64,000 nucleotides of DNA from IMG/VR virus record IMGVR_UViG_3300005512_000003, one strand, 5' to 3'. Under the pieces are notes generated by a model that did not search any database, was not told the DNA's origin, and saw nothing but the letters and a program-made list of their open reading frames with translations. The DNA comes from a virus (lineage: Duplodnaviria; Caudoviricetes). Below, piece by piece: positions 4,605-40,754 of this stretch (the first letter of the stretch is position 1; every line of letters begins with the position of its first letter). A program made the translations under genes and the position numbers.

Positions 4605-6149
4605 GTGGCAGATCCTAAAGTTAAACTAAAACGATCAGCCGTAGGCGGTCGTATTCCTAGTCCTGATCAGGTTCCTTTAGGCGAACTTGCTCTTAACACA
4701 TGGGACGGACAACTGTATGCATCCAAGAATGTAGGACTTGGAACTACGGTTGTTGCTATCAACCCCTGGATAGTAGGCACAGGGACAGATACATATAACG
4801 CATATTTCACTGCTGGAAATATTGGTATCGGGTCAACCACCCCAACATCAGCATTACATGTAGTAGGTGATGCTTATGTTTCAGGTATTGTTACTGCTAA
4901 TGCTGGATTTAATCTAGGTATATCTTCTGCTGGATCAGTGATTACCTCTGGTCCGATTAAAACTCTTAACTTTATTGGTGCTGGTAATACATTTTTAGTC
5001 AATGGAACTACTGTAGACATCAGTATTCAAGGTGGCGGTGGAGGAGCAGAAATCGGTGTTCAGGCAAATGATTCTGTCATCGGTTATGCACAAACCACAC
5101 TAAACTTTGTTGGTTCTGGTGTTACTGGAGTTTCTATTGGCACTACAACAACGATTACCATTGAACCTGGTCTTGTAGGTGCTGCAAAGTCTGTTACGTC
5201 ATTCACTGCAACTGCTGGACAAACGGTTTTCAATGTTAACTACAGTCAGGGGCAAGAAAATGTCTTTAGAAATGGTATAAGATTATCAGAAGGTGGTGAT
5301 TATACTGCAACAAACGGATCCACCATTGTTTTATCATCCCCCGCTTCAAGCGGAGACGTTATTGATATTGTTGTTTATCTGAGAGGTTCTGATCCTAATA
5401 GAAACGTAGAAGTTACACTCCTTCCACCATTCAATGGAATCACAACTGCCTTTACAATGTATAAAGGCACAACAAGTTATTTGTTTGATCCGATTGATGA
5501 AAGACAAATCGTTGTATCTCTTGGAGGTGTGATTCAGCAACCTGGAGTCGCATATACGGTAGGTACAGGTTCTTCTATTTTCTTCTCTGCTGCACCAGGT
5601 GCAGGTGTGAGTTGTTTCATTACTGCATTATATTCTAATACCGTAGGTATTCACACTGATGCAACAAAGATTGAAACTCAAGTTTATACCCCAACAGGTG
5701 TTCAAACATCATTTACTCTTACAAGAGGATATGAACAGAACTATCTTGATGTATATGTAAACGGTGCTCGTCTTGTTAATGGTCAAGACTTTACTGCAAC
5801 AGATTCTAGCACATTTGACCTTACTTCTGCAGCAGACTCTGGGGATATAGTAGAAGCAGTTGCATTTAGAACCATCGGCATTACGTCTGCGATCACTGCG
5901 GGCATCTCAAGTAACGTTGATGGAAACTATGTAAATACTACAAGTCTAAAAGTAACTGGGATTGCAACGTTCTCTTCCACAAGTCACTTAGTTCCACCAT
6001 CAGGAACAACGGCACAGAGACCAGCAAGTCCCACAGAAGGATCTATTAGATACAATACAACTTTAAGTGGATTAGAAGTTTACTCTGGAGGAAGTTGGGT
6101 TCAACTCTTCACAGATTATGTACAAACTGGTTCAACTATTTTCGGGTAA
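4605..6149 (+). CDS. Tail fibre/baseplate-associated protein
   Basis: KLKRS...LGELALNTWDG N-terminus; ATAGQT/NG.RL repeats; GTTAQRP...IRYNT C-terminal module. Confidence 0.7.
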   Translation: MADPKVKLKRSAVGGRIPSPDQVPLGELALNTWDGQLYASKNVGLGTTVVAINPWIVGTGTDTYNAYFTAGNIGIGSTTPTSALHVVGDAYVSGIVTANAGFNLGISSAGSVITSGPIKTLNFIGAGNTFLVNGTTVDISIQGGGGGAEIGVQANDSVIGYAQTTLNFVGSGVTGVSIGTTTTITIEPGLVGAAKSVTSFTATAGQTVFNVNYSQGQENVFRNGIRLSEGGDYTATNGSTIVLSSPASSGDVIDIVVYLRGSDPNRNVEVTLLPPFNGITTAFTMYKGTTSYLFDPIDERQIVVSLGGVIQQPGVAYTVGTGSSIFFSAAPGAGVSCFITALYSNTVGIHTDATKIETQVYTPTGVQTSFTLTRGYEQNYLDVYVNGARLVNGQDFTATDSSTFDLTSAADSGDIVEAVAFRTIGITSAITAGISSNVDGNYVNTTSLKVTGIATFSSTSHLVPPSGTTAQRPASPTEGSIRYNTTLSGLEVYSGGSWVQLFTDYVQTGSTIFG

Positions 6150-25818: not shown

Positions 25819-26145
25819 ATGGCAACCTATCGTTTTCGTGTCTGGCAGAGTGGCAGTGCTCCCTATGAGGTCACTGGTAATGGAATGTCATGGGGATATG
25901 CAAGAGAGAATGTTGCTCGTAGAGAAGGAGTGGATGTTTCGGATGTAATGCCCATAAATGGTAATGCTCCGATTGATGATGATTCATCCAGTTCTGGTGG
26001 AAGTAGTGGATTTGATGCTATGGGAAGTATAATGCTGATAGGAGTAATCCTATTGTTTGGATTGATCATCACATACTGGAAATGGATACTGATTGGTGGT
26101 ATAATAGTAGGAATACTTTGGTGGTGGTGTAAGGACGAACTATGA
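25819..26145 (+). CDS. Hypothetical membrane protein
   Basis: C-terminal hydrophobic helices after an S/G linker. Confidence 0.55.
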   Translation: MATYRFRVWQSGSAPYEVTGNGMSWGYARENVARREGVDVSDVMPINGNAPIDDDSSSSGGSSGFDAMGSIMLIGVILLFGLIITYWKWILIGGIIVGILWWWCKDEL

Positions 26146-26621
26146 AAGAGCATCCAAAATATAAAGGTATTTTTGTATGTCCTGATGGTAGGATCTTTAG
26201 TAACAAAAGAGGAAATCTACGACAGTTGAAACCACAAAAAACTGGATCTAATAAGAAATATAATAATGTTTATCTTTCCATATACGTTCAGTCAAGACCA
26301 AATAGAAAGTCTGTAAAAATACATAGATTAGTTGCGGAAACCTATATACCAAATCCAAACAATCTTCCAGTGGTTCATCATATCGATGAAAATAAGTTGA
26401 ATAATGATGTATCAAACTTGGAATGGGTTACACAACAACAAAATTGTGAACATACTAGATGTAAAAATAAATATTCGCTTATTGACACAAAAACTAATCT
26501 AGTGTATGAAATAACTAACATATCAAAGTTTGCTAAGGAAAATAATCTTGATATTTCTTCTTTGACGAAAGTTATAAGGGGGGAAAGAAAAATCTGTAAG
26601 GGGTTTGTATTAAATGTTTAA
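26142..26621 (+). CDS. HNH homing endonuclease (NUMOD4-HNH type)
   Basis: HRLVAETYIPNP...VHHIDENKLNN.VSNLEW; C-terminal NUMOD1-like HTH. Confidence 0.85.
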   Translation: MKEHPKYKGIFVCPDGRIFSNKRGNLRQLKPQKTGSNKKYNNVYLSIYVQSRPNRKSVKIHRLVAETYIPNPNNLPVVHHIDENKLNNDVSNLEWVTQQQNCEHTRCKNKYSLIDTKTNLVYEITNISKFAKENNLDISSLTKVIRGERKICKGFVLNV

Positions 26622-28257: not shown

Positions 28258-28653
28258 ATGGAAGATGTATTTGCATCCTTAAGGGATGTTGTAGTTGATG
28301 AGAGCCGTTTTGTGCCAATTGAGGATGGATGGTCAGGTGATTGGATGTATTTTCAACCAGGTCATACGATAAACTTGGGAAGACCAACATCAGAACCACA
28401 AAAACAAAAAGCAAGAGAAAATGCACTCAAACGCAACGTAAATCAAAAGGGTGCTAATAATAGAAACGCAAAGACTTGGCGTGTTGTTTATATTGATGGG
28501 AGAGAGATTATCATAAAATCTATTCACGATTGGGCACAGAGGAATGGATACAGCAAGTCAGGCATTTACAATCTTAAAAACGGTTTATGGAAAAAGTACA
28601 AGGACCTTGTGGCAGTTGAGGAAGTGGCACAGGAGGCACCCACAGCACCCTGA
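28258..28653 (+). CDS. Homing-endonuclease-type DNA-binding protein (NUMOD-like), no recognisable nuclease domain
   Basis: GRPTSEPQKQK, KGANNRNAK, SIHDWAQRNGYSKSGIYNL (HTH-like). TATAAATA at 28228. Confidence 0.6.
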   Translation: MEDVFASLRDVVVDESRFVPIEDGWSGDWMYFQPGHTINLGRPTSEPQKQKARENALKRNVNQKGANNRNAKTWRVVYIDGREIIIKSIHDWAQRNGYSKSGIYNLKNGLWKKYKDLVAVEEVAQEAPTAP

Positions 28654-34185: not shown

Positions 34186-34758
34186 ATGAAACCATTAACA
34201 CTGTCACAACTGAATCGAGTCAGTGCATTAAATCCAATGCAATCTGATCCTTCATTTCTACCATTGGTGAATGATTATGTCCAACGATGGAGTTCACTCT
34301 CTGAAGAAGGATTGGATCATGTTGCACTGATTCGGTGTATTGAATGTACCAATGGTTGTGTACAGTATGCCTTTCGCGACAATAGCGACAAAGCATTGTC
34401 TGTTGAACAAACGCGAGAAGCAATGAAGACTAGCATGTCTTTTATTAAGACAAAGAGTCTCACATTGCCTAATCATCAAACAATCAATGCACTCCCTGAA
34501 ATACACTCCCTCATGGATGAAACAAGGACTCTTTATGTTGAAGGATTCAAGAAAGGTAATCCAGAGATGACAAAAGAGTTCTTTGCTTCTTCTGTCGCCC
34601 AGTTGTATGTGTGTGGAAAAGAAAGGATTGTCAAACAAATGAAGTTTGTGAAGGAACACTTTACTGATACATTTACAGAGTTTTGGTTAACAATGGGATT
34701 ATCATATATGATGCAGTTTCTATTACCATTAGAAGACTATACACATACTAAACCTTAA
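34186..34758 (+). CDS. Hypothetical protein (190 aa)
   Basis: Long ORF with IRCIECTNGC; converges on the HNH gene with overlapping stops. Confidence 0.65.
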   Translation: MKPLTLSQLNRVSALNPMQSDPSFLPLVNDYVQRWSSLSEEGLDHVALIRCIECTNGCVQYAFRDNSDKALSVEQTREAMKTSMSFIKTKSLTLPNHQTINALPEIHSLMDETRTLYVEGFKKGNPEMTKEFFASSVAQLYVCGKERIVKQMKFVKEHFTDTFTEFWLTMGLSYMMQFLLPLEDYTHTKP

Positions 34759-35204
34759 ACATTATTGTATCTGACATTATTCACTAAGATTTTAATATAT
34801 TTCTGCATTCTATCCCATTCTGTTGTAGGCATGATTGTTATACCATTATCAAGGTGAACTATCTCATCAGTATAGGAATGAGGTATCTCTACTGTTTTAT
34901 TCTTATGACGATATATCCATTCTAAGTTAGATGCATTGTTATTGAGTTTATTACCATCTTTGTGTATAATGATCATACCATCTTCATATCCTTCACAGAA
35001 AGCAAATCCAACTAATCTGTGTACATAGAAAGGACGAGCATATTTCTTATCTTTATCATATACACTTACCATATAGAGAGATGCACCGTTTCTTTCTTTT
35101 AGGTATTGTTTAAGTTTCTTACCTGTCTTCTTATTGTATACCTCACCCTCTTCTGATACAATGGTATTGTCAAGAGAAGGATGTAGTTCAGAGAGATCGT
35201 ACAT
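34755..35204 (-). CDS. HNH endonuclease (NUMOD4-HNH type); the only convincing minus-strand gene
   Basis: VHRLVGFAFC...IIHKDGNKLNNNASNLEW. Confidence 0.85.
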   Translation of the reverse strand: MYDLSELHPSLDNTIVSEEGEVYNKKTGKKLKQYLKERNGASLYMVSVYDKDKKYARPFYVHRLVGFAFCEGYEDGMIIIHKDGNKLNNNASNLEWIYRHKNKTVEIPHSYTDEIVHLDNGITIMPTTEWDRMQKYIKILVNNVRYNNV

Positions 35205-35457
35205 ACTGATAATATAGAGGGAAGGTGAAGGTTGTGCTCTATATTTTATGTATAGTGCATAGGTTAATCATAGGTTCTAGGTTTAATAAATGGTTAAAAA
35301 AATAGTATAGAGTAATGTATATGGATTGTGTTCTATAGAATCTAGACGAGAATGTGTGTATCATCATATAATCATCATATAAGTCTCGTCTAGAATCATC
35401 ATATATGTCTCATAAAGTCTCGTCTAAATGTGTGATCTTATAGTCAGCTTAGCCCGC

Positions 35458-35515
35458 AGTCTATCAGATCTCGACGAGAATGTCAAGCACACGCGCCCAG
35501 ATTTCGCAGTGGCAC
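35458..35515 (-). promoter_or_regulatory. Leftward early promoter
   Basis: Minus strand TTGACA (35486-81)-17 nt-TAGACT (35463-58), with the dyad box at 35494-35515 lying 30 nt from the -10. Confidence 0.65.
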
Positions 35516-35544
35516 ACAGTCTCATAAGTCTCGACGAGATACAC

Positions 35545-35573
35545 TTGACATCCGCAGTCACATACAGTATCAT
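35545..35573 (+). promoter_or_regulatory. Rightward sigma70-type promoter inside the array
   Basis: TTGACA-17 nt-TATCAT. Confidence 0.6.
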
Positions 35574-36104
35574 ATAAACATCTCGACGAGATGTGCAGAG
35601 GTACGCAGTACACCACAGCGTACATATCTCGACGAGATACACATAAATCCACACATATCACATACAGTCATATACTGCGTACACATAATCTCGACGAGAT
35701 ATGTACATAATTACACATCACATCTAGTACACATATAGAGCACATATACTGCGTGTGTTCTAGTATAGAGCACACAGTGTACCATTGCACTATATTACGT
35801 GCATATATAATTACTGTGCGATGCATTAATGCGTAGCACATGTTGACGAGCACGGACATATCTGTTAGTATACTAATGTATCGCAGGTCGCTCCAATGAT
35901 TTCTTACGCTCAAAAACAAAAGTATCGAATCACCCTGGAAGTTGAGGTTCTAGATGACCCTGACTTCGCATTTGATCCTTTCCAGATTAACTGGTCTGAT
36001 GTTTTGTGTTTAGAACCTGCAGAGGATTGCACTGCATACGTAGAAGATCTATCACGAGATCTTCAGGAAGTATGGTAGGAATAAGACAGTTTTTATAGTG
36101 TCAC

Positions 36105-36131
36105 AAGACCCCTTGCGAGGGGTCTTTTTTT
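36105..36131 (+). terminator. Terminator hairpin inside an early promoter
   Basis: AGACCCCT-TGCG-AGGGGTCT-TTTTTT. Confidence 0.8.
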
Positions 36132-40151: not shown

Positions 40152-40754
40152 ATGAAAATTCTACCCACAAGGTTTCCACGTTATTCAGTGTCTGATACTG
40201 GACAAGTCTTTAGGGACGGCAAGCCCTTGAAGAGTCATAACAGGGGAGTGTCTACGAGTAATGGCACAAGGTATCAGGCAGTGAATATATCAATCTATGA
40301 TGATAGCGGAAAGTTTGCGAGGCAAATAAAGTATTATGTGCATCGCTTGGTTGCCGAGACATTCATAGAAAACCCAGAGAATCTATCAGAGATTGATCAC
40401 ATCGATGAGAATAAAGAGAACAATAATGTAAGTAATCTCCGATGGTATTCAAGAGCGGCAAACGCTGCTCGGAATGGTTTCCCTGAAGGAACGATTATAG
40501 AAAGGAAGAAGAGTGAGAAATCAAGGAATCCCTCAAAGTACATCAAGAAAGATGGGGAGTGGGTTTTGATTCCGAGTGAGAGATCGCCGTGGAACAAAGG
40601 ATTAAAAGGATCATCATGGAATACTGGAATGAAATCTGGAGAACCCGATGGGACGATCCGAAAGAGGGCGAATGGTCATTATTACATCAAAGAGGAGGGT
40701 AAATGGAATCACGTTAAGAAGAAAGATTATGGAAAATATGGACTCATTCCATAG
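40152..40754 (+). CDS. HNH homing endonuclease
   Basis: YSVSDTG.V; YYVHRLVAETFIENP...IDHIDENKENNNVSNLRW; PWNKG and PEGTI/PDGTI repeats. Confidence 0.85.
   Translation: MKILPTRFPRYSVSDTGQVFRDGKPLKSHNRGVSTSNGTRYQAVNISIYDDSGKFARQIKYYVHRLVAETFIENPENLSEIDHIDENKENNNVSNLRWYSRAANAARNGFPEGTIIERKKSEKSRNPSKYIKKDGEWVLIPSERSPWNKGLKGSSWNTGMKSGEPDGTIRKRANGHYYIKEEGKWNHVKKKDYGKYGLIP

Follow-up and report, generated by a model that had tools for sequence, protein, structure and literature searches.

A conserved palindrome array over divergent promoters of T4-like cyanophages, a putative multi-site operator

At OR and OL of phage lambda, which are bound by CI and Cro, and in the Arc/Mnt system of phage P22, short palindromes or pseudopalindromes at a single genomic position lie over the spacer and the start of early promoters that are strong and partly divergent. 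In phi29, proteins p4 and p6 act at promoters A2c, A2b and A3 to form the early/late switch (PMC3100819). In iteron origins such as P1 oriR/incC/incA, pSC101, F and RK2, a promoter is embedded among sites that share an orientation, next to an AT-rich meltable tract. In T4-type phages, PeSL cassettes pair strong sigma-70 promoters with stem-loops that often lie between the -35 and -10 elements, and cassette shuffling has been proposed for them (Arbiol et al. 2010, PMC2839356). Here we describe a dyad array in a cyanophage that resembles each of these in part. It is a real and conserved element, and neither the dyad word nor the array was described in the literature that we searched; the sole literature match for the word, in a list of terminators of phage DLP6, is a coincidence.

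The array was found in a 64,000-nucleotide stretch of viral DNA (IMG/VR record IMGVR_UViG_3300005512_000003), referred to below as the window. Its large ORFs match T4-type baseplate wedge proteins, gp8, tail fibres, a helicase and the cyanophage 'ferredoxin' family, and by DNA similarity it comes closest to Synechococcus myoviruses (72-79% identity); we therefore assign it to a T4-like cyanomyovirus (Kyanoviridae), of whose genome it is a part. N4-like hairpin promoters, suspected because of a 4331-aa ORF, were dropped, since this ORF is a baseplate or structural giant rather than an RNA polymerase and the phage is T4-like. The array locus lies within a 16-kb run of small early-type genes, with the tail-fibre module on one side and the baseplate module on the other. 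A sequence-only reading of the window had reported a gene-free block of about 690 bp, and the ORF list bears this out: a control region of 691 bp (35205-35895) separates an HNH homing-endonuclease gene on the minus strand (34755-35204) from a small acidic early gene on the plus strand (35896-36078), and holds no credible gene, only short ORFs that cross the repeats. The array region had no match to known phages by direct DNA similarity. The purine-pyrimidine alternation ascribed to the block is the strongest in the window, reaching 0.72-0.78 over the tract 35551-35850 and 0.77 at 35600-35850, about 6.8 sd above the average of 0.483 for the window (sd 0.043); alternation is common to the related arrays (median 0.605) and is a compositional feature. 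The HNH gene is one of three paralogues (phrog_959/phrog_59) that the window holds within 15 kb, at 26142-26621, 34755-35204 and 40152-40754.

The dyad TCTCGACGAGA is present in five exact copies, all on the plus strand (starting at 35469, 35529, 35581, 35627 and 35689), and in three variants, making eight copies. The variant TCTAGACGAGA, with one mismatch, is found at 35341-35351 on the plus strand and again at 35384-35394 on the minus strand, the latter within a 35-bp tandem duplication (35360-35426); the degenerate form TCTCGTCTAAA, with two mismatches, lies in the second copy of that duplication (35418-35428, minus strand). All copies fall inside 35341-35699 and none elsewhere in the 64 kb. 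The window holds 12 dyad hits counted over both strands, where shuffled sequences gave an expectation of 0.59 and none of 100 shuffles reached 12. Five of the units follow a common plan of CAGT, 8-14 bases and dyad, and dyad arrays grow by local duplication, of which the 35-bp tandem duplication is an example. Spacings between dyads in the window range from 43 to 62 bp without helical phasing. The further repeats that had been reported are also present in the array region, TCACATACAGT twice at a distance of 100 bp and CATATACTGCGT twice.

A promoter scan upheld the earlier proposal that the motifs overlie divergent promoters. The leftward sigma-70-type promoter PL (35458-35486, minus strand) reads TTGACA-17-TAGACT, with a TG before the -10 element and 10 of 12 consensus matches, and the rightward promoter PR1 (35545-35573, plus strand) reads TTGACA-17-TATCAT with 11 of 12. 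A second rightward promoter, PR2 (35843-35871, plus strand; TTGACG-17-TAGTAT, with TG), carries no dyad. The first exact dyad (35469-35479) sits inside the 17-bp spacer of PL. The next two flank PR1: one (35529-35539) ends 5 bp upstream of its -35 hexamer and the other (35581-35591) covers its predicted start site. The last two (35627-35637 and 35689-35699) lie in the PR1 leader, and the fifth, together with the fourth and their flanks, forms a 19-nt inverted repeat.

From this arrangement we propose, with middling confidence, that the dyads are a multi-site operator for a putative DNA-binding protein that would regulate a few immediate-early promoters. Most likely one dimer would occupy each site, with contacts between neighbouring sites, and the sites would thereby coat a conserved divergent immediate-early promoter region: one would fill the PL spacer, two would bracket PR1 at about -46 and +1, and two would lie in the PR1 leader. 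Occupancy would block RNA polymerase at PL and PR1 and leave PR2 free, so that expression of the HNH gene and of the small acidic early gene (35896-36078) would be reduced or stopped. Among the four options offered by the sequence-only reading, a multi-operator switch is the best supported, with dyads in a promoter spacer and at +1 that are kept in relatives. As in operator arrays of the lambda/P22 type, the sites are repeated palindromes or pseudopalindromes of one consensus that overlap core promoters. The array differs from them in having 5-8 or more sites over 250-400 bp where theirs are three and adjacent, in lacking an adjacent repressor gene, in belonging to a lytic T4-like phage, and in a word that is partly asymmetric and mostly in one orientation. 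With phi29 (PMC3100819) it would share a lytic phage and back-to-back early promoters under a multi-site nucleoprotein complex; in phi29 the proteins and their sites are known and the sequences are unrelated, whereas here the protein is putative.

The second motif of the window fared differently from the dyad. CGCAGT occurs at 35455, 35505, 35553 and 35604 and as its complement at 35674 and 35748, and a check against the 64-kb sequence found every coordinate given earlier for the dyad and for CGCAGT to hold; six of the 21 copies in the window fall within 300 bp. Two or more copies were found in only one of 71 related arrays, that of the window itself, and the CGCAGT copies of relatives fall mostly within the spacer of PL. 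We therefore dropped it as a conserved partner motif: it is a product of local duplication and a part of the conserved leftward promoter. Of the alternating two-motif array that had been described, the presence and order of both motifs stand, but their regular alternation is peculiar to this phage.

The dyad itself is conserved well beyond the window. Scanning IMG/VR for two exact dyads 30-60 bp apart returned at least 120 contigs, where we estimate a chance expectation for two exact 11-mers of less than 1, a figure that contig composition and repeats could raise; the model phage P-SSM2 also carries an array. The same kind of scan of 596 Gb of prokaryote genomes gave 65 scattered matches, none of them cyanobacterial. 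Many of the array-bearing viral contigs share neighbouring genes with the window, and comparison of gene order, which had been proposed as a check, showed the dyads to be conserved in relatives at one locus per genome, mostly before the same small acidic gene. In P-SSM2 (252 kb) and in contigs 111-172 kb long, all dyads fall in one cluster, or in two about 1.7 kb apart. At 33 loci a second or third small cluster lies in a neighbouring intergenic gap, which fits a regulator with few targets. The array is absent from nine isolates, S-PM2, Syn9, S-SZBM1, S-CAM22, P-TIM68, S-SM2, Bellamy, S-SCSM1 and S-B05. A packaging or entry site, another of the earlier options, has no support: many close relatives keep the same locus without the array.

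In P-SSM2 (NC_006883) the array occupies 65995-66169, between PSSM2_097 and PSSM2_099, and there too a dyad lies inside the 17-bp spacer between TTGACA and TATAAT. The P-SSM2 array is like that of the window in its word, in the dyad within a consensus-promoter spacer, in the long gene-free gap and in its purine-pyrimidine-rich flanks; it differs in having more CTAG half-site variants and in lacking the small acidic gene downstream. PSSM2_098 (66124-66279), annotated as a 51-aa ORF across the array, is probably not a gene, and ORFs like it cluster together only because the repeated word is translated. Other palindromes, separate from the dyad, are associated with promoters in relatives: ATTCTCAAT-N10-ATTGAGAAT precedes early genes in one related contig (L064, 3700-3760 and 5770-5830), and TGTGCCA-N10-TGGCACA precedes an early gene in P-SSM2 (L126, 5590-5620).

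When related arrays were aligned, dyad columns differed by 6.1% and the remaining columns by 17.3%, with gaps at 3.6% and 12.6% respectively, figures that come from non-independent array pairs and from alignments partly anchored by the dyads themselves. The dyads thus evolve about three times more slowly than the DNA between them and are under purifying selection. A consensus logo places the conservation in the dyad word, its flanks carrying no information. Two designs recur among 71 unique arrays: in the first a dyad lies in a 17-bp spacer of a near-consensus promoter with dyads on both sides, and in the second a run of dyads begins directly after a promoter. Placement in the spacer is seen in about 20 of the 71, and in others a dyad stands at +1. 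Counted from the predicted start, the centres of the dyads are most frequent at -25, between -5 and +15, and at -50, and both hexamers are avoided; the sites as a whole span about -150 to +240 relative to the promoter. Site spacings in relatives peak at 24, 32, 42 and 67 bp, the 32- and 42-bp peaks being three and four helical turns. The sites are therefore real, conserved, restricted to a single locus and set in register with the hexamers of the promoters. From these features we infer that a protein, probably encoded by the phage, would bind them and repress by binding.

Variation within the word bears on how it might be recognized. Its core, CTCG-W-CGAG, extends to RATCTCGACGAGA. Variants mostly carry a single half-site change (CTAG for CGAG) or have lost the last A, and symmetric double half-site changes are about six times commoner than independence predicts; these single and symmetric double variants fit recognition of half-sites on DNA, as by a dimer. 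With arrays oriented by the downstream gene, the central base on the sense strand is A in 199 and T in 31 of 230 copies (86%). The bias is 97:27 upstream of promoters and 123:16 downstream, and the share of A is 92% and 88% in two transcribed position classes. The left flank (R-A-T) is well conserved and its right mirror is not, and the left arm is better kept than the right. The word thus has a polarity beyond that of a plain homodimer operator, and part of this polarity may be inherited through local duplication of array units.

Such polarity is also what an RNA-level element would be expected to display, namely small hairpins with a 5-bp stem and a GAC loop in the PL and PR1 leaders that could bind a protein, stabilise or direct processing of the transcript, or form a noncoding RNA. 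Besides the sense-strand bias, three dyads lie in the 316-nt untranslated leader of the window, which folds better than shuffled sequences (z = -2.75); that fold, however, consists of dyads pairing with each other, as any repeated palindrome would. About a quarter of the copies have lost the outer base pair of the stem without a compensating change, and an RNA hairpin is disfavoured by this frequent loss. Compensation that keeps the stem, as expected of a nut/boxB-like hairpin, is thus not seen, although the sense bias is. In addition, the conserved 5′ flank (RA) has no pairing partner, the hairpin stems would reach no more than 3-5 bp, the bias is still there in the many copies that are located within a promoter or upstream of it, and Rfam returned no match for the region. 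We consider an RNA-level role highly improbable. The related suggestion of a processed repeat RNA array tied to the HNH gene is not supported, in view of the same Rfam result, of the hairpin not being preserved, and of most relatives' arrays lacking HNH.

Because dyad arrays grow by local duplication and homing-endonuclease genes adjoin them repeatedly, we also weighed a recombination or mobility module, in which the palindromes would be joints for cassette shuffling, or targets or landing pads of homing endonucleases. The slot filled by HNH in the window is occupied by a GIY-YIG gene downstream of PL in 23-26 relatives (for example L042 1035-1844 and L089 1692-2501, with about 20 more loci), and PL could read into the gene. 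The HNH gene, which looks like a homing-endonuclease insertion, is therefore a passenger that does not belong with the array, and the slot has the look of a hot spot at which such genes insert and borrow PL. Most related arrays lack an adjacent endonuclease gene and most lack any HNH gene, which argues against the module, as does the selection that keeps many exact copies of the word, unneeded by a recombination joint. PeSL cassettes provide the precedent: like the array, they lie in the hyperplastic early region of a T4-type phage and combine a strong sigma-70-like promoter (here PR1, 11/12, and PL, 10/12) with a dyad often placed between -35 and -10 (PMC2839356). In PeSLs, however, each small gene has a single stem-loop, a GC-rich terminator, and dozens of gene boundaries carry one (PMC2839356), whereas the array repeats one word at a single locus per genome. 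The dyads have 5-bp arms and no T run and are unable to act as terminators, and a terminator scan of 35205-35895 found no terminator-grade stem. A recombination or mobility module is accordingly very unlikely.

The promoters appear to be older than the array. About 50 of 74 related regions have a counterpart of PL that is conserved in sequence, among them those of P-SSM2 (L126, about 4920-4960) and of the array-less S-SM2 (L128, about 2820-2860) and Bellamy (L129, about 2840-2870). Since PL is kept even in phages without an array, the locus is an old conserved divergent-promoter region to which some lineages have added the dyads. Nucleotide conservation at PL spans the spacer and the first 25 or so transcribed bases, and nearly all genes of these phages run rightward; PL may serve a short conserved leftward RNA or replication priming. 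On the other side of the array, a gene of phrog_12516 encoding an acidic protein of about 50 aa (60 aa in the window) follows in 98 of the 121 loci listed, at a median distance of 135 bp. It is also present in array-less phages and is missing from P-SSM2. An intrinsic terminator (36105-36126, plus strand) lies directly 3′ of it in the window, making it a single-gene transcription unit; the unit 35896-36126 has up to two strong promoters and its own terminator. The AlphaFold model of the protein (pLDDT 84) is almost without regular secondary structure and shows no DNA-binding fold, and a Foldseek search against the PDB gave no structural match.

Other features of the locus recall an origin of replication. 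In such an iteron-like origin, or combined origin and control region as in P1 oriR or pSC101, the dyads would be initiator sites with an embedded promoter and an adjacent meltable tract, and, as at oriF and oriG of T4, opening or priming of the DNA would be aided by transcripts started at PL or PR. The array stands at one locus per genome, with strong divergent promoters, and the 86% of dyad copies in one orientation are the one iteron-like trait of the sites themselves. It adjoins an AT-rich tract downstream of PL (35240-35340) that is the least stable 100-bp duplex of the window, with a nearest-neighbour stability of -1.086 per step where the window averages -1.282 (sd 0.059); PL reads into this tract about 110-210 nt downstream, and any AT-rich intergenic DNA could look alike. 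The second dyad cluster, 1.5-1.7 kb downstream in the 33 loci mentioned above, recalls P1 incA. Of 71 relatives, 12 have between two and five perfect copies of the cyanobacterial DnaA-box consensus TTTTCCACA (PMC4674748), often 21 bp apart, at 160-280 bp to the left of their arrays, and the array-less S-SM2 has DnaA boxes at the equivalent place (NC_015279, 58064 and 58085). In these 12 regions (among them L082, L078, L065, L036, L068 and L022) and in S-SM2 the box clusters are mostly on one strand, between the upstream terminator and the counterpart of PL. Closely spaced inverted pairs of perfect boxes were also seen in array-less Syn9 (NC_008296, 52565/52589) and P-TIM68 (NC_028955, 58194/58208). 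We found no paper on DnaA boxes in cyanophages.

Against this, the window has no DnaA box in 35150-35950 even at two mismatches, and no initiator (Rep) gene lies near the array, the downstream acidic protein having no fold match. Iteron origins consist of 17-22-bp direct repeats with a Rep gene, and the dyads are 11-13-bp palindromes at irregular spacing; the points of likeness include the DnaA boxes of some relatives and the further cluster of sites downstream. Close relatives can do without the array: it is missing from Bellamy, S-SM2 and P-TIM68, which keep the same promoters, and so it is not the essential origin of the group. Cumulative GC skew was monotonic in P-SSM2 and in a 172-kb contig and gave no signal. 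No site-specific initiator is known to be needed by T4-type phages. The iteron-type origin proposed in the sequence-only reading thus keeps its unique locus, the adjoining unstable DNA and the DnaA boxes of some relatives, but lacks the box, the initiator gene and iteron-like sites in the window itself. We regard an iteron-like origin, alone or combined with a control region, as a tentative possibility. It is somewhat more doubtful that the locus is, in general, an origin and control region of T4-like cyanophages made of divergent promoters and a meltable tract, with DnaA boxes, the palindrome array, or both according to lineage; if it were, origin firing would be coupled to immediate-early transcription, as in iteron plasmids.

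For the operator that we favour, the search for a cognate protein gave no candidate. No cognate repressor gene, neighbouring or co-occurring, was conserved within the sensitivity of tblastn and with the window being part of a genome, and no divergent regulator gene was found adjoining the arrays. A phyletic profile set P-SSM2 and the 172-kb array contig against S-SM2, Syn9, Bellamy and part of P-TIM68; no gene was common to these two and the window yet absent from the four array-less phages, a comparison in which a short protein that evolves quickly, or a gene beyond the ends of the window, could have been overlooked. Nine weak candidates from the profile were discarded, none being in the window and none having a known domain; the best, phrog_5643, occurs in only about 40% of the loci covering its position. 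In neighbourhood clustering of 6423 ORFs around the 121 arrays listed, the small acidic gene was the sole near-universal neighbour, and its presence in array-less phages and absence from P-SSM2 led us to reject it as the binder. It was also rejected as a ribbon-helix-helix autoregulator, no such fold being present in the AlphaFold model or retrieved by Foldseek. Pfam scans of the small early ORFs of the window revealed no DNA-binding domain. The C-terminal third of a 131-aa ORF (28258-28653) resembles the helix-turn-helix of homing endonucleases, its sole match being a weak winged-helix hit (E = 0.02); this ORF has no homologue in P-SSM2 or the array loci and is an unlikely binder.

That no phage-encoded binder was found would suit a different arrangement, in which the dyads would be bound by a host protein, whether a regulator hijacked by the phage or one titrated by a decoy. 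DnaA boxes in some relatives indicate that the locus can carry sites for host factors. However, the 13-mer form of the word occurs in 44 of 401 Cyanobacteriota genomes, about as often as a reversed control, is almost absent from some 190 genomes of 1.5-2.3 Mb, the size typical of picocyanobacteria, and no cyanobacterial genome holds an array. At control frequency and with no cyanobacterial array, the word gives no sign of a host regulon that uses it, and docking of a host protein is the least probable of the readings weighed here. The points that count against the operator are the want of a binder candidate, the partly asymmetric word, the unphased spacings in the window and a spread of sites wider than simple repression needs.

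T4-like cyanophages kill a large share of the Prochlorococcus and Synechococcus of the ocean, and they are not known to have the T4 factors MotA and AsiA. The word could be used as bait for the putative binding protein, a regulator or initiator that would be new, and cyanobacterial genetics might gain a switch in the module of promoter and sites. Being perfectly conserved and placed at one locus per genome in more than a hundred phages, among them the culturable P-SSM2, the word offers a handle on the timing of early genes and the start of replication in these phages.
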